Of a stretch of DNA of 64,000 nucleotides, positions 2,040 through 59,155 are shown one piece after another. Origin of the DNA: Candidatus Woesebacteria bacterium GW2011_GWA1_39_21 (GTDB lineage Bacteria > Patescibacteriota > Microgenomatia > UBA8517). Below the pieces are notes generated by a model. It worked only from the letters and a program-made list of their open reading frames with translations. It ran no database searches and had not been told where the DNA came from. Location of the stretch: the NCBI GenBank assembly GCA_000993685.1, contig LBWP01000003.1:6196-70195 (forward strand). Reading direction: 5' to 3'. Numbering within the stretch: position 1 is the stretch's first letter; the number at the start of each line of letters is the position of its first letter. A program made the position numbers and the translations under genes.

Positions 2040-2382
2040 ATTTCCTTACCGGTTAATTTTTACCGAGATAGCCCTATATATTTTGGTTGCATTGGCCTGG
2101 TATATCGCCAAAGAGTCACTAAATTTGAGTATCGAAAACGAATATTTAATTGATGGGATTTTCATTTTTGGATTTATCGGGATGGTTATAAGAAAAAATG
2201 CGCACCATCGTTTTTACTGGTATGCTTTTTCTGCAATTGTTTTATCCGCAATATCCGATACTTTAGGCGCCACTACGATTACTTTTTATTTTAGTAGTCT
2301 TGCAATTTCATTTCTAATTCTAGGCGTTTTAAATACACTCCTTTTTAATAAGAATTTTCAGAAAGCTAATGACCAGTCATAA
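2017..2382 (+). CDS. Small integral membrane protein with three predicted TM helices, function unknown.
   Basis: 121 aa, very hydrophobic (IALYILVALAWYIA, GIFIFGFIGMVI, FSAIVLSAISDTLG). A good SD, agaaGGAGtaataATG, precedes the start. It overlaps its neighbours by a few codons, which suggests an operon. Confidence 0.45.
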   Translation: MSSKKSDKFPYRLIFTEIALYILVALAWYIAKESLNLSIENEYLIDGIFIFGFIGMVIRKNAHHRFYWYAFSAIVLSAISDTLGATTITFYFSSLAISFLILGVLNTLLFNKNFQKANDQS

Positions 2383-5104
2383 AAAAGTTGCAATATTTGC
2401 GCTTCTTACCGCGTTGATCTTCAAATTTTGGATTTTTACAAGCAAGTCAAATCTTGGTTCCGATATTAGTTATCGTTTTTTGCCAATCGTTAATGGTATC
2501 TATCTGCCTTTTACGTGGAATAATGTTCAAACCGGAGACGGAATGGGCGTGTATGCCGTAAATACTTTGTGGTCATACCCTTCGGAGCTATTTTATGAGT
2601 CATTGACGAGATTTGGGCTGCCGTATTGGTTTCAAATTAAATATTTGATGCTTTTGCCGGCAATTCTAATTTCCACCTTAGGTTTCATCAAACTTTCAAA
2701 ATTTTTTAAAGGTGATTGGCTCGTTTCGTCTGTTTTATACGTCTTAAACACTTACTTTATTTTGCTTTTAGACGGTTCGCAAATGAACATCGTTTTGGCG
2801 TACAGTGTTTTCCCACTCACATTCTACTTTTTTTTAAGTGTTTGCGAAAAGTTGAGTGTTTACTTACTTTTAAAATTCGTCTTCAGTGTTTGGTTGATCG
2901 GCACTTTCGATTTGAGAATAGTCTGGATATTGGCATTCGTCGTGTTAATAAAATTTATTTTTGATTTTCTCACCGTTAAGGGTGGTGGTCAAAGGTTTTG
3001 CCTTTTCAAAAACTATATTGTCATTGGCTTAACGACTACAGTTTTTCTGGTTCTACTTAATCTGTATTGGATTTTACCGGCTAAATTTTCCGAAGGTGTG
3101 CATCTTCCTGCAGGGTACGACTCCGCCCAACAGGTAACCAATTTGAGTTTTTCAACGATCACACATGCTCTTTATTTATTTCAACCGCATTGGTATATCA
3201 ATAGCTTTGGCAAGGTAACAAACCCCGTGTGGTATTTTGCCATTGTTCCAATTTTCGCATTTGTTCCGGTTCTTCTTTCCAGAAAAAAGCAGTATTTGTT
3301 TTTAATCTCAATAGCATTTGTCGGGATATTTTTGACAAAAGGATCACAACCGCCTTTGGGGGAAGTATACCTGCAACTTTTCCAGAAAGTGCCGGGGTTT
3401 AACTTGTTTCGAGATCCGAGCAAGTTTTTTTTCTTAATTGCTTTCTCCTACTCGATATTGGTGGGGATTACTTCAAAATTAATTTCCAAAAAATCATATC
3501 TGCCTTCGCTCGTTTTCATCATCTATTTGGTATTTCTCATGAACCCCGTTTTGCGCGGCCAAATGACGGGATCTTTTTCTCCGGTCCAAAACGAAGATAA
3601 ATACTGGTCTTTTGCGCAATTGTTAAGTAGTCAAACCGATTTTTTTAGAACTTTCTCAATCCCGGTCAAGTTGCCGCTAGGTTATGTCTCATTTACGCAC
3701 CCATCAACCGAGGCATTTTCGATCGCAGAAAAAAGACCGTTCGAAATAGGCACTGTGGGAACATATGAGAAATTTAATTTCTTACGAGAAGCTCCTTTTA
3801 TGGGAGAGCTTATAAATGTTGCCGGAATAAAATATCTTATTTATCCTTTTCCCGACGCGCGGCGTAAAGCTTTGAAACAGGACAACCTCGATTACTACAA
3901 CACTTTCTTGCAACAGTTGACAAATTTACCATGGATAGAAAAGAAAATTTCAGATTCACCCGTTGCTGTGTTACAGACAAAAAAACACCAAGACCATTTT
4001 TTTATTACTCCTAGAACCTTTTATGTTGTTGGTTCGGATAGGATTTATTCGGACTTAGTTAATGTTACCGGATTTGATTTGTCCAAATTGGCGTTGGTCT
4101 TTGCGGAAGAACGGCCAGGTGTAGTTGGTAAGCCTGACAATCTCCCTATTACAAATATTCTTCTCTACCACAAAAGTGAGACTGATTTGGCAGCAAGTTT
4201 TATTGATAAGGCCCTCTATATTTTTCCTGCCCAAAATCTTAAGCGTGACCCAACTGATGTTAGCCCGTGGTGGAAGCGGGAGGCGAATGATTTTTTATCG
4301 ATGAGAAATTTTCTGCAAACCAAATATCAAATTGACAATCAAGATTTTGATTATCAGGGTGGCTATGCAGTAGCGGAAGGCGACCAACAGCTTGTCGTGC
4401 AAGATTTGAAGTTTAAATCTGGGAATTTATTGTTGGTACGCGTGATGAGAAGCTCTAAAAGCGGGAGCATCCAGTTTTGGCAGGATAATTCAAAGATCGG
4501 CGAAGTTGATACGCTTGATCAAAATCCTGAACAAGTAGAAATTAAGCTCACTGGTTATAACGATGTGCCAGATCGAATTTTCACTTATGATTCGGCCGCC
4601 TTTGACTGGCATCTTGTTGGAAAATTAAATTCGCAGCATCCCCTAAATGTCAAAACTTCCGGTGAGATTAATATTGTCAATGCGCTTGCCTCTGTATCCG
4701 AGCAAGATTGGAACCGGGTAAATAGGTTAACTGGCCCATACAACATTCTCGACTGGGACAAACTTTCAGACAAGGACAAACAACGATTAGTCGAAGTTTC
4801 AAGTGATGCAAAAGTAACCTATACCCGTCTTTCACCGACGGAATATAAAGTTAACATTTCAGGTTTGAAATCTCCGATAACACTTGCGTTTTCTGAGAGC
4901 TTTGATTCTTTTTGGGAAGCAAACGGTGTGGGTTCTTATCCCTTGTATAGTTTTATAAACGGTTTCAGAATCGATCAAGATGGGACGTATGACATCTACT
5001 TTTCTCCACAGAAATACGTTTTCGTACCTTTGGCAATTTCGGCTGCTTCATTGGTTATTATAGTCTTAATCTTGATTTACCCTACACTTCGAAAAAAGTT
5101 ATAA
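2369..5104 (+). CDS. YfhO-like (GT-C fold) polytopic membrane protein, a putative membrane glycosyltransferase.
   Basis: 911 aa. The N-terminal ~400 aa contain at least 10 hydrophobic helices. A large extracytoplasmic domain follows, and the C-terminus (ITLAFSESFDSFWEANGVGSYPLYSFINGFRIDQDGTYDIYF) ends in a TM anchor. This architecture matches YfhO/AftD-type proteins, from memory of the family. Confidence 0.5.
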   Translation: MTSHKKVAIFALLTALIFKFWIFTSKSNLGSDISYRFLPIVNGIYLPFTWNNVQTGDGMGVYAVNTLWSYPSELFYESLTRFGLPYWFQIKYLMLLPAILISTLGFIKLSKFFKGDWLVSSVLYVLNTYFILLLDGSQMNIVLAYSVFPLTFYFFLSVCEKLSVYLLLKFVFSVWLIGTFDLRIVWILAFVVLIKFIFDFLTVKGGGQRFCLFKNYIVIGLTTTVFLVLLNLYWILPAKFSEGVHLPAGYDSAQQVTNLSFSTITHALYLFQPHWYINSFGKVTNPVWYFAIVPIFAFVPVLLSRKKQYLFLISIAFVGIFLTKGSQPPLGEVYLQLFQKVPGFNLFRDPSKFFFLIAFSYSILVGITSKLISKKSYLPSLVFIIYLVFLMNPVLRGQMTGSFSPVQNEDKYWSFAQLLSSQTDFFRTFSIPVKLPLGYVSFTHPSTEAFSIAEKRPFEIGTVGTYEKFNFLREAPFMGELINVAGIKYLIYPFPDARRKALKQDNLDYYNTFLQQLTNLPWIEKKISDSPVAVLQTKKHQDHFFITPRTFYVVGSDRIYSDLVNVTGFDLSKLALVFAEERPGVVGKPDNLPITNILLYHKSETDLAASFIDKALYIFPAQNLKRDPTDVSPWWKREANDFLSMRNFLQTKYQIDNQDFDYQGGYAVAEGDQQLVVQDLKFKSGNLLLVRVMRSSKSGSIQFWQDNSKIGEVDTLDQNPEQVEIKLTGYNDVPDRIFTYDSAAFDWHLVGKLNSQHPLNVKTSGEINIVNALASVSEQDWNRVNRLTGPYNILDWDKLSDKDKQRLVEVSSDAKVTYTRLSPTEYKVNISGLKSPITLAFSESFDSFWEANGVGSYPLYSFINGFRIDQDGTYDIYFSPQKYVFVPLAISAASLVIIVLILIYPTLRKKL

Positions 5105-5255
5105 CATCCTCCACTATCTCTGCTTAAGGTTTTTTACAAAATCACTTTAAGGGAGGATGACATATAAGCAAAGCTTAACTCTGTTTGCACATTTTCAGCA
5201 TTCGATTCATCCCTAATCTAAAACTGAGGGTTTTCTCGAATGCTGTTATAATTAA
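5104..5255 (+). repeat. Copy 3 of a modular, structured repeat element (three copies in this window), a candidate sRNA or miniature mobile element.
   Basis: acatcctcc at 5104-5112 pairs with ggaggatgacat at 5152-5163. Next comes the module ataagcaaagcttaactctgtttgcacattttcag, then cattcgattcat, then a weak hairpin ccctaatctaaaactgaggg, then the conserved tail ttttctcgaatgctgttataa. It aligns module by module with 47338-47450 (same strand) and the reverse complement of 58972-59155. Confidence 0.6.
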
Positions 5256-6549
5256 ATTTGTGAGAAGGCTCTTGAAACTCAACTTTTTTTCTGTTGTAAA
5301 AACCAATACTTTTCGTCAATCAACTTTGACATTTACGGCAACCGTAATAAACGGAATTTTGGGAATGGTTTTTTACATTCTTCTTGCACGCGAGCTTGGC
5401 GTGTTTGATTTCGGCTTATTTTCATTGTCAATTACGGTCTTGGCGGTGGTTGCCGATATCGGAAATCTGGGGATTAATACTGGGATTGTAAATTTTGTAT
5501 CAAAGTATCTTAAATCCGACTACCACAGGTCGATGGGGTTTCTTAAGTTAGGGCTCTTGTCAAAAATTTTGATTGCACTCGTAGTTATTATTTTTGGTTT
5601 TTTATTGTCGCCATTTTTGTCAAAACAAGTTTTTAATAAACCGGAACTTGTTTTTGGACTGCGATTGGTTTTCATAGGTGTTGGTACAACTTGGCTGTTT
5701 TCATTTACAACTTCATACTACCAAGCCTCGCAAAAATTTATTAGCTGGGGGTTAATTCAGATCTTCACCAACTCATTAAGACTTGCGGTTGTTGTCTATT
5801 TGACGGCTAGTTTACAACTTAATTTAACAACAGCGATTATCAGCTATATCGTTGCGCCTTTGCTGGGATTTTTGTTGAGTTTTGTTAACATCTCAGTTGA
5901 CTTTGTCAAAGAAAAAATTAATTCAGAAGTTCGTGGTGAGTTTTTTAATTACAACAAGTGGGTTGCTATCTCGAGTGGAATTGCTGCTTTTTCATCACGC
6001 ACGGACATATTTGTGTTGGGAAGATTGGTTACAGCTTCCGGTATCGGGATTTATTCGGCAGCTAATCAGCTGGTATCAGTTGTTCCGCAACTAATCGGCG
6101 CAATGGGGACAGTTGTTGCCCCAAAATATTCTTCGTTCACCAATGACCAACAAATGCTAACTTATTTTAAAAAACTTTTACTGATGGTTGTCGCCGTGGC
6201 GTCTTTTATTCTGTTATGCACGCCTGGAGTGAGGTTAATAATTAATCAGTTTTTCGGAGTTGAGTATAGGAATTCGTTTCCAATTTTTATGGTTCTATTG
6301 GTCGCAATGTTATTCTTTCTGATTTCGGTCCCGTTCCATAATGCCATAATCTACTACTACTCATACCCGAAGCTATTTTCTTATCTGTCAGTGATCAATT
6401 TCATAGTAATTGCTTCACTTTCGGTGTTTTTAACACTGAATTTTGGTTACCAGTCAACAGCATATGCGATAATGGCTGGAAACATTGTCAATTTTATAGT
6501 TCCGGCTTTATGGTTTTGGCGAAGGGTGAGTGGTGTTAAAAATAAATAA
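5185..6549 (+). CDS. Wzx-like polysaccharide biosynthesis protein (MOP-superfamily oligosaccharide flippase). The true start is probably downstream, at GTG 5260 or ATG 5365.
   Basis: 12-14 predicted TM helices. The N-terminal region FYILLARELGVFDFGLFSLSITVLAVVADIGNLGINTGIVNFVSKY is typical of Wzx/RfbX flippases. The first ~25 codons (from a TTG) are the translated tail of the repeat element (…FSNAVIIKF = ttctcgaatgctgttataa), so they are not believed. Confidence 0.55.
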   Translation: MHIFSIRFIPNLKLRVFSNAVIIKFVRRLLKLNFFSVVKTNTFRQSTLTFTATVINGILGMVFYILLARELGVFDFGLFSLSITVLAVVADIGNLGINTGIVNFVSKYLKSDYHRSMGFLKLGLLSKILIALVVIIFGFLLSPFLSKQVFNKPELVFGLRLVFIGVGTTWLFSFTTSYYQASQKFISWGLIQIFTNSLRLAVVVYLTASLQLNLTTAIISYIVAPLLGFLLSFVNISVDFVKEKINSEVRGEFFNYNKWVAISSGIAAFSSRTDIFVLGRLVTASGIGIYSAANQLVSVVPQLIGAMGTVVAPKYSSFTNDQQMLTYFKKLLLMVVAVASFILLCTPGVRLIINQFFGVEYRNSFPIFMVLLVAMLFFLISVPFHNAIIYYYSYPKLFSYLSVINFIVIASLSVFLTLNFGYQSTAYAIMAGNIVNFIVPALWFWRRVSGVKNK

Positions 6550-6558
6550 GTTGTAAAA

Positions 6559-7404
6559 ATGCAAATTTGGGGACATGCATTGGTTAAGAATGAAGATCGC
6601 TACCTTTGGTATGCAATAAGTAGCGTGATTAAGTTTGTTGACAAGGTATTGCTTTGGGACACAGGAAGCTCCGATGATACTCTCAAGATTGTCGAAAGTC
6701 TAAAACAAAGATACCCGTCTAAAATCAAATTTAGGGAAATAGGTGAGGTAAATCCAGAACAATTTACAGTTGTCAGGCAAAAGATGTTAGAAGAAAGTGC
6801 TTGTGATTGGGTAGTGATTGTCGATGGAGATGAGGTTTGGTGGGAAGACAAAATAAAAGAAACAACTGATTTGATTCATACAAGGGGCCAAGGACTTGAT
6901 TCACTTGTTTCACAATATTATAACGTTATTGGTGATATCTATCACTTTCAGGATGAACTTGCAGGCAGGTACAATATTGATGGAAAAGTTGGTAATTTTA
7001 ATATCCGTGCTTTTAACAGAAAAATTAAGGGCCTGAAGTTTAAAAAGCCACACGGGCAACAAGGACTTTTTGATTTTGCCGACCGGCTTTTACAGGAGCG
7101 TGAGCAAAGCAAACGTTTCTGGGTGATGGGATATTCCTATCTTCATTTTACGAATATGCCCAGGTCACGTGCGCGTTCAAGCGATTTAGCTGTCCCAAAA
7201 AGAGCCTTTAAGTTGAAGTATGAATTAGGAAACAGTTTCCCGCTTGATTTCTACTACCCGGAAGTTTTCTTTGAAGATCGACCTGAGTATTTGAAATCGG
7301 TTTGGACCAATATGGATTTGAAGTACCAGGCGCGTTCATTTGTTGAGACACCCTTTAAAAAAGTAAAAAGACAACACTTTTCTTCAGAAAAATCAGGATA
7401 TTAA
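6559..7404 (+). CDS. GT-A fold glycosyltransferase, family 2-like (Glyco_tranf_2_4-like).
   Basis: The N-terminus HALVKNEDRYLWYAISSVIKFVDKVLLWDTGSSDDT and a later VIVDGDE (DxD-like) match GT2-like nucleotide-sugar transferases. It sits within the glycosyltransferase island. Confidence 0.45.
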   Translation: MQIWGHALVKNEDRYLWYAISSVIKFVDKVLLWDTGSSDDTLKIVESLKQRYPSKIKFREIGEVNPEQFTVVRQKMLEESACDWVVIVDGDEVWWEDKIKETTDLIHTRGQGLDSLVSQYYNVIGDIYHFQDELAGRYNIDGKVGNFNIRAFNRKIKGLKFKKPHGQQGLFDFADRLLQEREQSKRFWVMGYSYLHFTNMPRSRARSSDLAVPKRAFKLKYELGNSFPLDFYYPEVFFEDRPEYLKSVWTNMDLKYQARSFVETPFKKVKRQHFSSEKSGY

Positions 7405-7413
7405 GTTTTTTAG

Positions 7414-8988
7414 ATGATGGATAAAATTATTAAATTTAAGACGCACTACATTGTCTTTCTGCTTTTTGTTATTGCAATTGTTCCCAGGATTTACCGTTTT
7501 TCGCAACAACCGATTTACACTGACGAAATAACATGGATGGTCAGAGCGAAAGAAACATTCCTTGCGTTACGAACCTTTAATCGGCAGCATATAAAAAACT
7601 ATTTTCAAAGTAGTAACGCTTGGTGGGTTAATGACAACGACACTGAGGCAATAGCGCTTCCTTTGACTGCTGCGACTGGACCGTTTATCGCATATCTGGG
7701 AATTGGTCAAAGCGTTTTAACTAGAAATGTTGCGAGAGATTTTGTCGTTGCCCGTTTCCCGCTTATTGTGATTAATTCGTTTACGGTTGTGATTGTTTAT
7801 TTATTAACCAGAAAAATTACAGATAAAAAAACGGCACTTTTGACGGGAGTTTTGTACGCGTTGGATCCCGTGGCTATCAGTTACAGTCGTTTAATCATTA
7901 ATGATGGGCTTTTGACATTGTTTATCCTTTTTGGCATATATAGCTTTTTTTATATCGAGAACGTTAAGACGTCAATTATTTTGTCATCACTCTCAATCTG
8001 CTTTGCTTTTCTGACAAAGCCGATTGGACTACTTCCTCTGATAATATTTTTCTTTTACGCAATCTTTTCCGACAAAAAAATGAAGAATTTTATTAAGTTT
8101 ACTCTGATCGGATTAGTAAGTTTTGTCCTGATTCACTTTTTTTGGCCGGAAGCTTGGTTTCATCCATTCACTTCAGTGTTTGAATATCTGACGCGTCAGT
8201 TTAAGCTTATAGAAAATTCTACGGAAATGTTTTTTGCGGGAAGTGTTTCGCACCAGGTTCCCTTTTACTATTACTTTATTTTGATTTGTTTGCGTGTACC
8301 TTCTTACATTTTCTTCGGCCTTTTAGCCTCTTTGTATTTCTTTTTTACAAAAACTGGACGGAAAAAATTGATTTTGATAAATTTAAAAACCCTTTCGCAA
8401 ATAATTTATGTTTTTGTCTTTTTCTTATTTTTGTCGTTTGCCTCAAAAAAATCCGGAGTCAGGTATTTGCTTCCCATCTGGCCATATATTTACATTGGAG
8501 CATGTTGTGCGATTTTTCGTTTTGTCAAAAAACTACCGGAAATATTCGGAGGATTCGTTTTGCTTGCAATTATCTCGCTTTCTCTTTTTAATATTTACAA
8601 ATATGAACCAAATTATGATTACTACTACAACGAAATATTCGGTGGACCGGCGGTTGCCAAGAATTATGTGTCAACATCACTTTGTTATGGTGCAAAAGAG
8701 TCCGCCGATACATTGAAAAAGTGTTTTCCACAGGTTACGCAGATTTCTTATGTTGGTTGTGCAAGATCAACTTTACCATACTATTTTTCAGGAATTATAA
8801 ATTCACAGATAGACCCCAATCAACCCGTTGTAATCGAAGCCTATTATGAACAAATGAAATATGTGACAACGAAAACAGCAAAGCTAGTTAAAAATAAAGA
8901 TGTGATAAATGTTACAAAAAATGGTGTCGATCTGGCAAAGATCTACCTTAATTTGAAGCAGTTTCCCAAAAGTTGCTCTCTGAACTGA
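7414..8988 (+). CDS. GT-C fold membrane glycosyltransferase, ArnT/PMT-like (polyprenyl-phosphate-sugar dependent, GT39/GT83-like).
   Basis: 524 aa, polytopic. The first extracytoplasmic loop carries PIYTDEITWMVRAKE, the DE motif of the PMT/ArnT family. About 11 further TM helices follow. Confidence 0.55.
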   Translation: MMDKIIKFKTHYIVFLLFVIAIVPRIYRFSQQPIYTDEITWMVRAKETFLALRTFNRQHIKNYFQSSNAWWVNDNDTEAIALPLTAATGPFIAYLGIGQSVLTRNVARDFVVARFPLIVINSFTVVIVYLLTRKITDKKTALLTGVLYALDPVAISYSRLIINDGLLTLFILFGIYSFFYIENVKTSIILSSLSICFAFLTKPIGLLPLIIFFFYAIFSDKKMKNFIKFTLIGLVSFVLIHFFWPEAWFHPFTSVFEYLTRQFKLIENSTEMFFAGSVSHQVPFYYYFILICLRVPSYIFFGLLASLYFFFTKTGRKKLILINLKTLSQIIYVFVFFLFLSFASKKSGVRYLLPIWPYIYIGACCAIFRFVKKLPEIFGGFVLLAIISLSLFNIYKYEPNYDYYYNEIFGGPAVAKNYVSTSLCYGAKESADTLKKCFPQVTQISYVGCARSTLPYYFSGIINSQIDPNQPVVIEAYYEQMKYVTTKTAKLVKNKDVINVTKNGVDLAKIYLNLKQFPKSCSLN

Positions 8989-45134: not shown

Positions 45135-46505
45135 ATGTTGACTTTGAAATCTAAAATCGCCGTTTTGGGTTTGGGTGTTGAAGGGAAAGATACAATCAAT
45201 TATCTACAGAAAAAAGGTATAAATGACATTACTGTCTTTGACAAAAAAACAAAGAGCGATTTAGATTTGTCCGGTATTAATACTTCAGATTTAAAATTCA
45301 TTACAGGAGCGGATTATCTTAAAACTGGCTTGACAGTTTATAAAACAATTTTCAGATCGCCTGGGGTATACCGATTTTTGCCGGAAATTATCACGGCTGA
45401 AAAGTCAGGTAGCGTAATTACGAGCAATATTAAACTTTTCTTTGAAAAATTTAACGGTGTAAGTATTGGAGTTACTGGTACGAAAGGGAAGGGGACAACG
45501 TGCACTTTGATTTATGAGATGCTCAAAAAAAGCGGGAAGAATGTATATTTAACAGGGAATATTGGATCTCCCCCGTTATCGGTTTTGGACGAGGTTGGGG
45601 AGAGCTCAGTTGTTGTTTTAGAACTTTCTTCATTTCAACTTATTGATTTGCAAAAAAGTCCCGACATTGCGGTTGTCTTGAATGTTACAAGCGACCACAT
45701 GGATTGGCATAAAAATCAGAAAGAGTATGTCGATGCTAAAAAAAATATCGTGAAACAACAAGATGAAGACGACTTTAAAGTAATTAATTTTGACTACAAA
45801 ACCTCAAAAGATTTCGCCGACCTCTCCCCTTCTAAAAATTACTTTTTTAGTAAAAATGAAAAAGTTGTTGGCGGGTATGTTGAGAATGGAGTAATTTATC
45901 TGAAAATTGAAGGGAAGTTGTCGAAAATCGGAAACACTAAAGACTTACTTTTACGGGGAAAACATAATTGGGAAAATGTTTGTGCCGCAGCTTGTACGTC
46001 TTATCTTGCGGGTGCGGATCTAAAGAGTATTGAAAAAACAGTTTTTTCCTTTAAGGGTTTGGAGCACAGACTAGAACTGGTTGGTGAGGTGGATGGTGTA
46101 AAATATTACAACGACTCTTTTTCAACAAACCCTCAAACAACAATTGCTGCAGTTGATTCTTTTTTTGAACCGACGACTTTGATTATAGGGGGCTATGATA
46201 AGGGATTAGATTTTAATCAAATGGCCAAACATTTATCTAAAACCAAAAATCTAAAAAATATTCTTCTTATTGGTGATCTTGAAGATAAGCTTTACGAATT
46301 GTTAAAAAAATATAAATCTGAAAACTTAATTATAAGGATGGGTAAACCTGGAATGTCGCAAATTTTAGAGAAATGTAAAGAGGTTACTAAAAAAGGTGGT
46401 GTAGTTTTGCTCTCGCCTGCATGTGCTTCTTTTGACATGTTTGAAAATTACAAGGAGCGTGGAAATCAATTTAAAAAATGCGTGATGAACCTAATTGGAA
46501 GCTAA
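45135..46505 (+). CDS. murD: UDP-N-acetylmuramoyl-L-alanine--D-glutamate ligase MurD.
   Basis: IAVLGLGVEGKD (Rossmann start), GVTGTKGKGTTCTLIYEML, and DSFSTNP in the C-terminal domain. Confidence 0.8.
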   Translation: MLTLKSKIAVLGLGVEGKDTINYLQKKGINDITVFDKKTKSDLDLSGINTSDLKFITGADYLKTGLTVYKTIFRSPGVYRFLPEIITAEKSGSVITSNIKLFFEKFNGVSIGVTGTKGKGTTCTLIYEMLKKSGKNVYLTGNIGSPPLSVLDEVGESSVVVLELSSFQLIDLQKSPDIAVVLNVTSDHMDWHKNQKEYVDAKKNIVKQQDEDDFKVINFDYKTSKDFADLSPSKNYFFSKNEKVVGGYVENGVIYLKIEGKLSKIGNTKDLLLRGKHNWENVCAAACTSYLAGADLKSIEKTVFSFKGLEHRLELVGEVDGVKYYNDSFSTNPQTTIAAVDSFFEPTTLIIGGYDKGLDFNQMAKHLSKTKNLKNILLIGDLEDKLYELLKKYKSENLIIRMGKPGMSQILEKCKEVTKKGGVVLLSPACASFDMFENYKERGNQFKKCVMNLIGS

Positions 46506-46509
46506 ATCA

Positions 46510-47460
46510 TTACCACTTACCTTTTTCTACGAAATTTCTAAACAGTTGTATCACATCTTTAGTGACGTGTCCGACTTTTCCGTTACCTATCTTTTTCTTA
46601 TCAACTTTCACAACTGGCATGACCTCTTTGTTGCTTGCAGTTAAAAAGACCTCATCGGCAGAAAAGATGTCGGATAATTTTATCGGTCTTTTTATGACCG
46701 GATAAATTATATGACAAAGACTGATGACCAGGTCTCTTGTAATACCGAAAAGAATCTTATTGTCGCTCGTGTAGATTTGCTTATTTTTGACGATAAAGAC
46801 ATTACTTGTAGTTGCCTCTGTAATATTACCTGATTTTTCGTCGTAATAAACTGCTTCAATACATCCGCTTTTTTTCGCTAAATTTAACGCCCTAATTGCG
46901 ACTGAATATTCGAGAGATTTGATTTCAGGGAAAGGACGGGAATATTTGTACGAGAGGGCTTTTGCACCATTTTCAAAAAGCGCATTTGGGTAAAAGTGAC
47001 GGTCCTCGACGATAACAATAATTGAGGCTTTAGCAGAAGGTTCGGTCGATGAATTTCCAACACCGCCGGTTATTAGAATACGAATTGTTTTTTCTTTTCC
47101 GTTTATGTTTTTTGAAAGCGTGTTGTTGACGATGCTTTCAATTTCTCTTTTTGTCTTTCCAATCGTTAAACCCAATATCTTTGCAGAATTAAAAAGTCGG
47201 TCAATGTGCCGGTCGATAAGAAATGGCCGATTATTATAAGTGACAAGAAAATCAAAAACGCCAAAGCCGCGAAGCAGTCCGATATCTAAAACACTAATTA
47301 CCGCCTTACTTTCAGGCAAATAATTTCCATTTATATAATGACATCCTCCCCGCCTTAAAAGGCGGGGTTTCTCCAAGGAGGATGACATATCAGAGTTCAA
47401 TTCATCCCCACCCTGAAGGGTGGGGTTTTCTTGAACGCTGTTATAAATTGGCACACTCAT
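46510..47460 (-). CDS. Class IV (fold type IV) aminotransferase, D-amino-acid or branched-chain aminotransferase-like. The N-terminus is uncertain: the first ~40 codons are encoded by the repeat element.
   Basis: INGNYLPESKAVISVLDIGLLRGFGVFDFLVTY aligns with the N-terminus of Dat/IlvE enzymes (xNGxxxxxxeAxIsxxDxGxxxGDGVFE). There is no canonical start codon right before this block. The ATGs at 47460 and 47388 both lie inside the repeat copy. Confidence 0.6.
   Translation of the reverse strand: MSVPIYNSVQENPTLQGGDELNSDMSSSLEKPRLLRRGGCHYINGNYLPESKAVISVLDIGLLRGFGVFDFLVTYNNRPFLIDRHIDRLFNSAKILGLTIGKTKREIESIVNNTLSKNINGKEKTIRILITGGVGNSSTEPSAKASIIVIVEDRHFYPNALFENGAKALSYKYSRPFPEIKSLEYSVAIRALNLAKKSGCIEAVYYDEKSGNITEATTSNVFIVKNKQIYTSDNKILFGITRDLVISLCHIIYPVIKRPIKLSDIFSADEVFLTASNKEVMPVVKVDKKKIGNGKVGHVTKDVIQLFRNFVEKGKW
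47338..47450 (+). repeat. Copy 1 of the modular structured repeat element. This is the compact version.
   Basis: atgacatcctcc-CCGCCTTaaaAGGCGGGG-tttctccaa-ggaggatgacat, then atcagagttcaattcat, then ccccaccctgaagggtggggttttctt, then gaacgctgttataaattg. It shares a 14-mer with copy 3 (ggaggatgacatat) and most of its length with the reverse complement of 58972-59155. Confidence 0.6.
47406..47432 (+). terminator. Intrinsic-terminator-like hairpin inside repeat copy 1.
   Basis: CCCCACCC-tgaa-GGGTGGGG followed by TTTTCTT. No + strand gene ends nearby, so it is more likely the 3' end of the element's own transcript, or a bidirectional insulator. Confidence 0.35.
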
Positions 47461-47572
47461 TTAACATGTTCTAACAACTACAGATTATTATATAGGTAGA
47501 TTAAGTTAAAATAACAATCAATCTATCCTCCTAAGTCCGGCTGCTTCTGCAGCCTTTAATATATTTGCACCC

Positions 47573-47701
47573 TTACTTCTCTTTTTTGGGTAGTTTGCCT
47601 AATTCTTTTTGAAGCGTTTGTACTTGGACATCTGGTTCGATAAGAGTTTTAGAATTTTCTAATGAAATGGGTTTGGTTTGAGCAAGTGCCTCGCCTGTCA
47701 T
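47573..47701 (-). CDS. Unannotated 42-aa small ORF with a strong SD. Low confidence.
   Basis: Minus strand: GGGGGGTGAtacttATG ACA GGC GAG… gives MTGEALAQTKPISLENSKTLIEPDVQVQTLQKELGKLPKKEK*. It is too short for the supplied ORF track and lies in a ~430-bp region otherwise lacking genes. Confidence 0.25.
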   Translation of the reverse strand: MTGEALAQTKPISLENSKTLIEPDVQVQTLQKELGKLPKKEK

Positions 47702-47889
47702 AAGTATCACCCCCCCTTAAACAATTAGTAGATAATACCACATATTCAAGTAATTTATGAGGGGACGCGAAAAGATGTTAAAATAAACCAATACTGACAG
47801 TTAAGCCCAAGATCTTGTGTCGACAAGAAGGTTTTTTCTTCAACCACGGACGCGTAGTCCCCGGCTTTGAAGAGAAATTTAATATAAAC

Positions 47890-58971: not shown

Positions 58972-59155
58972 ACCGTCATTTTATAACAACGTTCAAGAAA
59001 ACCCCACCCTTCAGGGTGGGGATGAACCGCCTGCTTAGCTGCGCAAGCTAGCGGGCAGGATTGAACTCTGAAAATGCGTAAGCGGAGTCAAGCTTTGCTT
59101 TTATGTCATCCTCCTTGGGGACACCCCACCTATTAAGGCGGGGAGGATGTCATTA
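58972..59155 (-). repeat. Copy 2 of the modular structured repeat element. This is the expanded version, with two inserted hairpin modules.
   Basis: Read on the - strand: atgacatcctcc-CCGCCTTaataGGTGGGG-tgtccccaa-ggaggatgacat, aaaagcaaagcttgactccgcttacgcattttcag, agttcaat, [cctgcccgctagcttgcgcagctaagcaggcgg], ttcat, ccccaccctgaagggtggggttttctt, gaacgttgttataaaatg. The aaagcaaagctt… module is shared with copy 3 and absent from copy 1. Confidence 0.6.
58995..59021 (-). terminator. Intrinsic-terminator-like hairpin inside repeat copy 2 (- strand).
   Basis: On the - strand, CCCCACCC-tgaa-GGGTGGGG followed by TTTTCTT. It is identical to the hairpin in copy 1. Confidence 0.35.

Follow-up and report, generated by a model that had tools for sequence, protein, structure and literature searches.

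A structured repeat probably inserted in frame within an aminotransferase gene of a Woesebacteria genome

Background

A class IV aminotransferase gene in a 64-kb window from Candidatus Woesebacteria bacterium GW2011_GWA1_39_21 (contig LBWP01000003.1; the window is the whole stretch of 64,000 nucleotides analysed) carries a structured repeat at its 5' end, which raises the question of where the enzyme begins and how the repeat came to lie there. The sequence-only reading of this locus had placed the repeat upstream of the gene, as the source of an apparent N-terminal extension, and had left two choices: either the element was inserted in frame and now supplies the start codon, or the true start is non-canonical and the extension is an artefact of gene calling. 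We consider it very probable that the repeat (hereafter copy B) is an internal in-frame insertion after codon 5 of the aminotransferase gene, and that the original start codon has been kept. The features of the gene are as follows.

46510-47460, - strand: open reading frame (ORF) of the class IV aminotransferase, 316 aa with the inserted residues counted, core fold from residue 40
47446-47460, - strand: probable ancestral ATG (47458-47460) and codons 2-5 (MSVPI), 5' of the insertion
47386-47388, - strand: element-internal in-frame ATG (Met25), the Met of a DELN-x-DMSSS core; possible but unnecessary alternative start
47487-47492, - strand: TATAAT, a -10-like hexamer 26 nt 5' of ATG 47460, by sequence inspection

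Results

Position of the aminotransferase N-terminus

The protein belongs to the fold-type IV enzymes: 727 of its homologues carry PF01063, and BCAT/DAAT structures in PDB match residues 42-312 (E 1e-44). Alignments with these PDB homologues begin at query residue 41-42, which corresponds to their own residue 5-7. The 120 best homologues are 259-317 aa long (mostly 275-285), cover 82-89% of the ORF, and have N-termini of the form M-x(1-8)-[IY]-[YF]-[VI]-N-G-K, so that 2-9 residues precede the first conserved strand. Only one of the 120 covers the extension, namely P0001, a strain variant with 99% identity. The sequence-only reading had held that orthologues whose conserved N-terminus runs through the repeat-encoded residues would make the region ordinary coding sequence; apart from this variant, the 120 homologues lack these residues.

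Translation reproduces the extension peptide as it had been read, and ATG 47460 and ATG 47388 are indeed the only in-frame ATGs before the core. Further in-frame start candidates are GTG 47454, TTG 47400 and TTG 47376, and a stop codon lies immediately 5' of ATG 47460. Removal in silico of 105 nt (47340-47444, equivalent to 47338-47442, because AT stands at both junctions and lets the boundaries of the added DNA slide by 2 nt) gives ATG AGT GTG CCA ATT TAT TAT ATA AAT GGA. The excised gene encodes 281 aa with the N-terminus MSVPIYYINGNYL (longer MSVPIYYINGNYLPESKA), and this protein aligns without a gap to 17 homologues that have IYYVNGKFLP N-termini. An alternative excision of 108 nt yields MSVPIYING and a one-residue gap against the homologues. 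The gap-free alignment after removal of 105 nt indicates that ATG 47460 and codons 1-5 are ancestral, and the predicted empty site would read ...CCAATTTAT|TATATAAATGG... (or the 108-nt alternative). Aligning homologues to fix the N-terminus, as had been proposed, thus gave neither of the two choices set out above but an insertion between codons 5 and 6. The repeat was correctly taken for an element inserted in frame whose encoded residues are missing from orthologues; it lies inside the coding sequence, not upstream of it.

An AlphaFold model computed with the homologue alignment as input has pLDDT <50 for residues 1-36 and places the first strand at residues 40-43, while the remainder is confidently predicted (mean pLDDT 83, pTM 0.80). 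The same insertion, with an identical element sequence, is present in an independent ENA contig from a near-identical strain. This contig (L066) is sharply divergent in the 3' end of the neighbouring murD (window ~46247-46424, with 60 of the 64 mismatches), which may be a recombination boundary or an assembly end effect.

The course of events would have been that a non-coding mobile repeat of ~110 nt entered the aminotransferase gene between codons 5 and 6 and added 105 nt, or 35 codons. The sole stop-free antisense frame of the element happens to be in phase with the enzyme, and for this reason the ORF stays open from ATG 47460 via the element to the conserved core. The most likely product would be a 316-aa protein composed of MSVPI, 35 element-encoded residues and a normal fold-type IV enzyme, with the inserted segment forming a disordered N-terminal loop before the first beta-strand.

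Several points weigh against this interpretation. No empty-site allele or close orthologue (>65% identity) was found, the best match in a scan of JGI metagenomes being partial at 61% identity, and the pre-insertion state is therefore reconstructed and not observed. The aminotransferase genes of the two strains differ by 4 substitutions, 2 of which alter the protein, and this number is uninformative on selection. We infer both the start codon in use, for which the genome provides no Shine-Dalgarno (SD) motif as a guide, and the continued function of the interrupted enzyme.

Sequence and fold of copy B

A structured repeat, one of three copies in the window, overlaps the 5' end of the aminotransferase gene at 47338-47446, where the letters are those that the sequence-only reading described. 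Its parts are listed below; the orientation called + is that of the family alignment.

47338-47446, + strand: repeat copy B, full unit ATGA...TTATAA, 109 nt; the HgcC-like, insertion sequence (IS)-like orientation is the - strand
47338-47442, - strand: DNA actually added in the best reconstruction, 105 nt, from in silico excision, gap-free against homologues
47443-47446, - strand: putative pre-existing target tetranucleotide TTAT (ATAA on +), from a net insertion of unit length minus 4
47338-47388, + strand: helix P1, 47338-47349 with 47377-47388 (ATGACATCCTCC / GGAGGATGACAT), around hairpin P1a, 47350-47355 with 47360-47365, in the minimum free energy fold
47391-47441, + strand: helix P2, 47391-47400 with 47432-47441, around P2a, 47406-47413 with 47418-47425, followed by a T-run, 47426-47431

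The + strand of 47338-47446 reads ATGACATCCTCC[CCGCCTTAAAAGGCGG]GGTTTCTCCAAGGAGGATGACATATCAGAGTTCAATTCATCC[CCACCCTGAAGGGTGG]GGTTTTCTTGAACGCTGTTATAA, or by module ATGACATCCTCC-[CCGCCTTAAAAGGCGG]-GGTTTCTCCAA-GGAGGATGACAT-A-TCAGAGTTCAA-TTCATCC-[CCACCCTGAAGGGTGG]-GGTTTTC-TTGAACGCTG-TTATAA. Both strands fold at about -52 kcal/mol (z -6.1 and -7.4 against shuffles). In a pattern scan the P2a hairpin (47406-47425), followed by TTTTCTT on the + strand, matches the terminator pattern, as had been noted earlier together with the remark that it faces away from any + strand gene. The pattern is present, and no + strand gene ends upstream of copy B for which it could act as a rho-independent terminator; the hairpin belongs to the conserved P2a architecture and is not a terminator of a local gene.

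Census and covariation of the repeat family

An exact-pattern scan (CATCCTCC-N12-42-GGAGGATGACATA) covering one genome per species returned 65 loci, 62 of them from 25 Woesebacteria/Microgenomates/Patescibacteria assemblies and 3 representing chance matches in unrelated bacteria. A covariance model placed the repeat at 74 distinct positions; these fall in 63 loci, namely the 62 of the scan and L066, the contig of the ENA strain variant. Genomes rich in the repeat include CP066686.1 and DATDRP01, the latter with about 25 copies. Canonical units are 106-116 nt long, and units overall range from 106 to 190 nt. Small size, lack of a transposase and dispersed copies at non-homologous genic or intergenic sites agree with a miniature inverted-repeat transposable element (MITE) in the broad sense.

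The helices were tested on a MAFFT alignment of 38 distinct copies that had not been fitted to any structure. P1 has 11 pairs, all invariant in the 38 copies, while compensatory changes were seen in 5/5 pairs of P1a, 4/10 of P2 and 7/8 of P2a. Paired cells make up 96.5% in the four helices compared with 35-44% when the partners are slid, and double-change cells number 174 against 14-36 in the slid controls; none of 500 shuffles reached the observed values. Both P1 and the linkers are invariant across 25 species. No copy was found in viral contigs, a literature search gave no description of this element in bacteria of the candidate phyla radiation (CPR), and Rfam at gathering thresholds gave no family match in the whole window. 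The repeat represents a structured family of ultra-small CPR genomes that had not been filed before.

Of the 25 assemblies with this Woesebacteria repeat, eight bear the title 'uncultured Gammaproteobacteria' (CAYTZB01, CAZBTH01, CAYIKF01, CAYISM01, CAZRJH01, CAYTOP01, CAZGHY01 and CAZVJU01; loci L007, L008, L012, L017, L021, L023, L027, L028, L033, L034, L040, L043, L048 and L056-L058). The taxonomic label of these eight is probably wrong. Two loci have structured RNAs near the repeat. In L020, a glmS ribozyme (54.8 bits; 7070-7279, -) lies 13 nt from an element copy (7293-7404, +), and in L056 a copy at 5436-5550 is located 184 nt upstream of a 16S rRNA gene (5734-7436), which itself differs from the Rfam model by a 181-nt insertion close to the 5' end.

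Copies read through in other genes

Stop-to-stop ORF analysis of relatives revealed further read-through copies; about 5/74 copies are intragenic. In Dtd (D-aminoacyl-tRNA deacylase, L008) the element is in frame and splits the PDB alignment into 1-115 and 146-180, with 36 extra residues for a 112-nt unit. A P-type Ca-ATPase homologue of 839 aa has an in-frame element in a loop of its cytoplasmic domain. A family-4 glycosyltransferase also contains one in frame, and here the N-terminal domain alone was confirmed. In a DUF4153 protein the element is read in the opposite orientation, within one continuous domain match. The antisense in-frame copies (aminotransferase, Dtd, P-type ATPase and glycosyltransferase) have the core DELN-x-DMSSS in common, since TGA interrupts the central part in both of the remaining antisense frames, a restriction that follows directly from GGATGAATTGAAC. 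ATG 47388 is the Met of this core, and is an internal Met in the Dtd, ATPase and glycosyltransferase copies.

A profile search of the protein database with the element-encoded peptide returned 18 small spurious ORFs (P0121-P0138), which are not host proteins and provide no census of in-frame copies. These deposited 'proteins' of 34-77 aa are the open antisense frame of intergenic element copies. For annotation of Woesebacteria, an ORF containing ...DELN-x-DMSSS... can be treated as carrying a repeat insertion, and ORFs of 34-77 aa on intergenic copies as spurious.

Alternative explanations for the interrupted gene

It is improbable that the element supplies the start codon and that translation proceeds from ATG 47388 with an 18-residue element-encoded leader. 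This ATG is in frame with the aminotransferase, nothing before residue 37 is structured in the AlphaFold model, and the absence of SD use in the genome means that the choice of start is not settled from sequence. However, the ancestral ATG and its five codons remain intact and in frame 5' of the element, with TATAAT 26 nt ahead, whereas ATG 47388 has no preceding -10-like motif inside the element and is read as an internal Met in three other host proteins. Still less credible, and in our judgement very nearly negligible, is an extension that is an ORF-calling artefact, with a true start that is non-canonical or located right after the element. The extension is missing from homologues, as this explanation would have it, but only TAT ATA AAT separates the element from the invariant N44-G45, and the next canonical start 3' of the element, TTG 47319 (codon 48), would remove the first beta-strand and invariant residues. 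The frame is moreover open through all 36 element codons and joined to a homologue-like MSVPI start, and the excised N-terminus aligns to homologues without a gap.

There is also a small chance that the aminotransferase is inactivated or being inactivated, the ORF being open by accident in a young pseudogene. A random insertion of copy B would be open and in phase in about 1 in 6 cases, its strong hairpins (-52 kcal/mol) now stand 15 nt after the ATG, and the 4 differences between strains yield no selection signal. Yet the 316 codons contain no other lesion, AlphaFold predicts the core confidently and the same allele was found in two samples. In-frame copies also persist in Dtd and a P-type ATPase elsewhere, as with the Rickettsia palindromic elements (RPEs) (PMC10969869). 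An insertion after codon 5, with the original start retained, remains the interpretation that we favour.

Other copies in the window

The covariance model built from relatives finds exactly three copies in the 64-kb window, copy B scoring 118.6 bits (E 2e-26). The other two are the following.

5101-5251, + strand: repeat copy A; its P1a insert differs, and a linker is present in addition
58981-59153, - strand: repeat copy C, between ftsZ (stop 58896) and ileS (ATG 59206); besides the linker it contains a further, nested palindrome

Copy A stands between two genes that had been only 8 nt apart. It does follow a + strand gene, the one at 2369-5104, whose stop codon its left end overlaps. On the right, its end TGTTATAAT is followed at 7 nt by GTG 5260, the start of a polysaccharide-biosynthesis (flippase-type) gene. 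In the alignment of copies A, B and C, the second outer helix shows compensatory changes. A linker module, AAGCAAAGCTTGACTC..GCATTT, is found between the halves of copies A (5162-5190) and C (59085-59115, -); copy B lacks it, and a portion reappears in the P2a loop of locus L063. A second, nested GC-rich palindrome (e.g. CCGTGCCCGCCGGCAGGCAGG) occurs in some copies, including the window at ~59019-59052 (-) and L036, L047, L052, L058 and L054, either between ACATA and TCAG or within P2, and may be a smaller hairpin element invading the repeat.

Between the aminotransferase and an alpha/beta hydrolase gene there is a further terminator-like hairpin, GGCTGCTTCTGCAGCC+TTTAAT (47539-47554, +; z -3.9), adjoined by a 45-aa ORF (47573-47710, -) with no Pfam match. 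The segment 47755-47875 was considered as a structured RNA and rejected, since its fold is ordinary (z -0.3 and -1.3). A tRNA/tmRNA scan of the window found none.

Gene starts and the ends of the element

The window genome has almost no SD motifs. In several of its genes the ATG is preceded at 5-8 nt by TATAAT or TAAAAT (starts 9049, 10564, 22489, 33219, 59206 and others), a proximity that suggests leaderless mRNAs. For 18/47 copies a co-directional gene starts <=21 nt from the right end, typically with the layout TGTTATAAT-N5-9-ATG, and in one copy the TGTTATAAT layout is followed at 11 nt by a tRNA gene. Copies of a subfamily that ends in TATGA provide, with this terminal ATGA, the ATG of the downstream gene; at the left end, the TGA of ATGA serves several upstream genes as stop codon. 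Many of the copies stand directly at gene starts, and there the end TGTTATAA(T) would by its sequence restore a -10 box.

From this anatomy we infer that the target is a TTATAA-like sequence, often coinciding with a -10 box, and that the end of the element restores the box. The element end (GCTGTT plus ATAA) would rebuild an extended -10 (TGTTATAAT), and the coincidence of TTATAA-like targets with -10 boxes would explain why copies cluster at gene starts.

Discussion

Possible modes of mobilisation

We tentatively regard the family as a non-autonomous IS200/IS605-type element, i.e. a palindrome-associated transposable element (PATE), an assignment that we hold at slightly less than even confidence. 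The - strand of copy B in the window would be the transposon top strand, TTAT|AACAGCG...GGGGAGGATGTCAT|, inserted 3' of TTAT without target duplication, and its right end (...GGGGAGGATGTCAT) would be akin to the RNAs from transposon right ends that Rfam lists under HgcC. Elements of the IS200/IS605 family are known to choose a site 3' of a fixed tetra- or pentanucleotide and to insert there without duplicating the target; the guide-RNA scaffold of TnpB is encoded in their right end (PMC8612924). HgcC RNAs, which are similar to RNAs derived from PATEs, arise by transcription from the 3' ends of IS1341-type tnpB genes (PMC4615843, PMC4247193). Thermococcus has an HgcC copy in the 5' part of a protein gene and a second that is transcribed from within such a gene (PMC4247193).

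The ends of the repeat are in keeping with this assignment. ATGA forms the left tetranucleotide in 46/47 copies, the right end reads YTATAA apart from a minority with ATGA or ATAG, and the two bases left of the element are T (77%) and T/A (77%). The flanking tetranucleotides are not copy-specific duplicates. Target-site duplications (TSDs) of 2, 3, 4 and 5 bp were rejected, as a 5-nt match (TATAA) exists in copy B alone and the left and right tetranucleotides differ systematically. In two independent cases the net insertion equals unit length minus 4 (105/109 nt in the aminotransferase, 108/112 nt in Dtd), hence one tetranucleotide pre-existed. An excision that retains TTAT restores IYYING, the best match to homologues, in the aminotransferase and Y-F-I-S-K in Dtd; we tentatively take TTAT rather than TCAT as the target, although leaving TCAT behind would serve nearly as well. 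Long terminal inverted repeats (TIRs) and TSDs are absent from the family, and its subterminal hairpins P1a and P2a show compensatory changes in 12/13 pairs.

At permissive thresholds all nine copies tested match HgcC (RF00062) with 26-34 bits, always antisense to the alignment orientation. Copy B scores 33.4 bits and the eight other copies 26.5-33.7, with E ranging from 2e-6 (201 nt) to ~1e-3 (63 kb). Motifs shared with HgcC outside the stems are hairpin-GAUGAnnUGAAC ... CCCCGCC-UUUA-GGCGGGG-AGGAnGUCA.

Some observations speak against the IS200/IS605 part. None of the tested copies reaches the HgcC gathering score of 50 bits. The 463 kb of element-bearing loci contain no TnpA/RAYT by phmmer with approximate IS608 TnpA, IS200 TnpA and RAYT queries, no TnpB-like ORF by a zinc-ribbon ORF filter, and no full-length IS with these ends. 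As a possible strand indicator, G·T pairs exceed A·C pairs (42:15) on the complement of the proposed top strand; one column dominates this ratio, which is 25:15 when it is left out, and the single counts are not independent. Finally, the ends show a weak inverted match (TTATGACA / TGTTATAA, 7/8, partly flank or target bases), which also fits a MITE with short TIRs. The 20-kb neighbourhood of another copy holds housekeeping genes only and no partner transposase. The base after each hairpin (GTTTCC or GTTTTC) varied together with the tetranucleotide at the end (ATGA or ATAA), 5/5 vs 50/55, an association that was not used, because all five cases belong to one subfamily in one genome and there are two exceptions.

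A classical MITE moved by a DDE transposase, with very short imperfect TIRs (TTATGACA / TGTTATAA) and a TA/TWA target, appears unlikely, though it merits some weight. The inverted match at the ends, the AT-rich, TTATAA-like target, the lack of a Y1 transposase in the loci searched and the equally good folding of both strands would all suit it. On the other hand, the flanking tetranucleotides (left ATGA in 46/47, right mostly ATAA) are not duplications, the insertions in the aminotransferase and Dtd each add unit length minus 4, covarying subterminal hairpins take the place of long TIRs, and the HgcC similarity is consistent across copies. We also give little credence to the view that the repeat is in the first place a host regulatory cassette, combining a terminator on one strand with outward -10 promoters, or a small RNA gene, and not a selfish element. 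P2a with its U-run does fit the terminator pattern, many start codons are preceded at 5-10 nt by a right end that rebuilds TGTTATAAT, and P1 and the linkers are invariant in 25 species. But the copies occur at non-homologous sites in different genomes, including the coding sequences of conserved enzymes, and such a distribution requires insertion events; copy B, besides, is flanked on neither side by a co-directional gene that it could terminate or drive. The roles of regulatory cassette and mobile element are not mutually exclusive.

A more speculative extension of the PATE assignment, to which we attach only a slim chance, is that the family is a bacterial (CPR) branch of the HgcC / reRNA-omegaRNA right-end guide RNAs surviving as solo PATEs, with a scaffold loaded by TnpB encoded elsewhere that enforces retention of the insertion. 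The scaffold of copy B would then lie within the aminotransferase mRNA, followed by UAUAUAAAUGGAAAU... as a ready-made guide, and TnpB would cut TTAT-flanked empty alleles, so that the insertion is retained in an ordinary enzyme gene. In a more remote variant, ribosomes might bypass the hairpin block with the help of the UAU codons, which are identical at both junctions (codons 6 and 42). Precedents for ribosome bypassing are T4 gene 60 and the mitochondrial 'byp' elements.

Comparison with known systems

For annotation, the insertion explains the N-terminus of this aminotransferase. More broadly, the anatomy described above points to a CPR repeat family that would insert at -10-like TTATAA sites, rebuild the promoter it hits and occasionally be tolerated in essential enzymes. 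If the weak HgcC link is true, a bacterial repeat would be tied to the right-end RNAs of IS200/IS605/TnpB and would provide a natural set of solo guide-RNA scaffolds.

Among small structured repeats, the Correia elements (NEMIS) of Neisseria are likewise found just upstream of genes, have ends that create sigma-70-type -10 boxes and form hairpins in mRNA (PMC10969869). Unlike the present element, whose promoter role is predicted from sequence, Correia elements have 26-bp TIRs, a TA duplication and a DDE-type origin. The modular mosaic with optional modules (here the linker AAGCAAAGCTT... and the nested GC palindromes in copies A, C, L036 and L047) and the terminator-like hairpins resemble those of repetitive extragenic palindromic (REP) sequences and bacterial interspersed mosaic elements (BIMEs), BOX and SPRITE. 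These differ in sequence and host, and REPs have a GTAG-type head recognised by RAYT, whereas no RAYT was found in the 463 kb searched here.

With the PATEs, HgcC and sotRNA (RF00062, RF02656) the family shares the absence of long TIRs and TSDs, the subterminal hairpins and a putative insertion next to a conserved tetranucleotide. To this is added the weak but consistent covariance-model similarity to HgcC (26-34 bits), which includes the GAUGAnnUGAAC motif. In contrast to HgcC, the scores lie below the gathering threshold, no tnpA/tnpB partner was found in the 463 kb of loci, and the long-range helices P1 and P2 are outside the HgcC model. HgcC was described from archaea.

The RPEs are hairpin-forming interspersed repeats of ~100-150 bp in small genomes, and they too were inserted repeatedly and in frame into unrelated conserved genes, where they are read through with a conserved peptide core (PMC10969869). 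Their counterparts as host genes here are those of the aminotransferase, Dtd, the P-type ATPase and DUF4153. The host phylum is different (Patescibacteria/Woesebacteria), and the likeness described here is one of behaviour. Only ~5/74 copies are intragenic here, compared with nearly half of the RPEs, and most copies of the present family are at gene boundaries. Occasional tolerance inside essential enzymes is the very phenomenon that made the Rickettsia elements notable, and we conclude that the Woesebacteria repeat is RPE-like in its behaviour and possibly PATE-like in its architecture.

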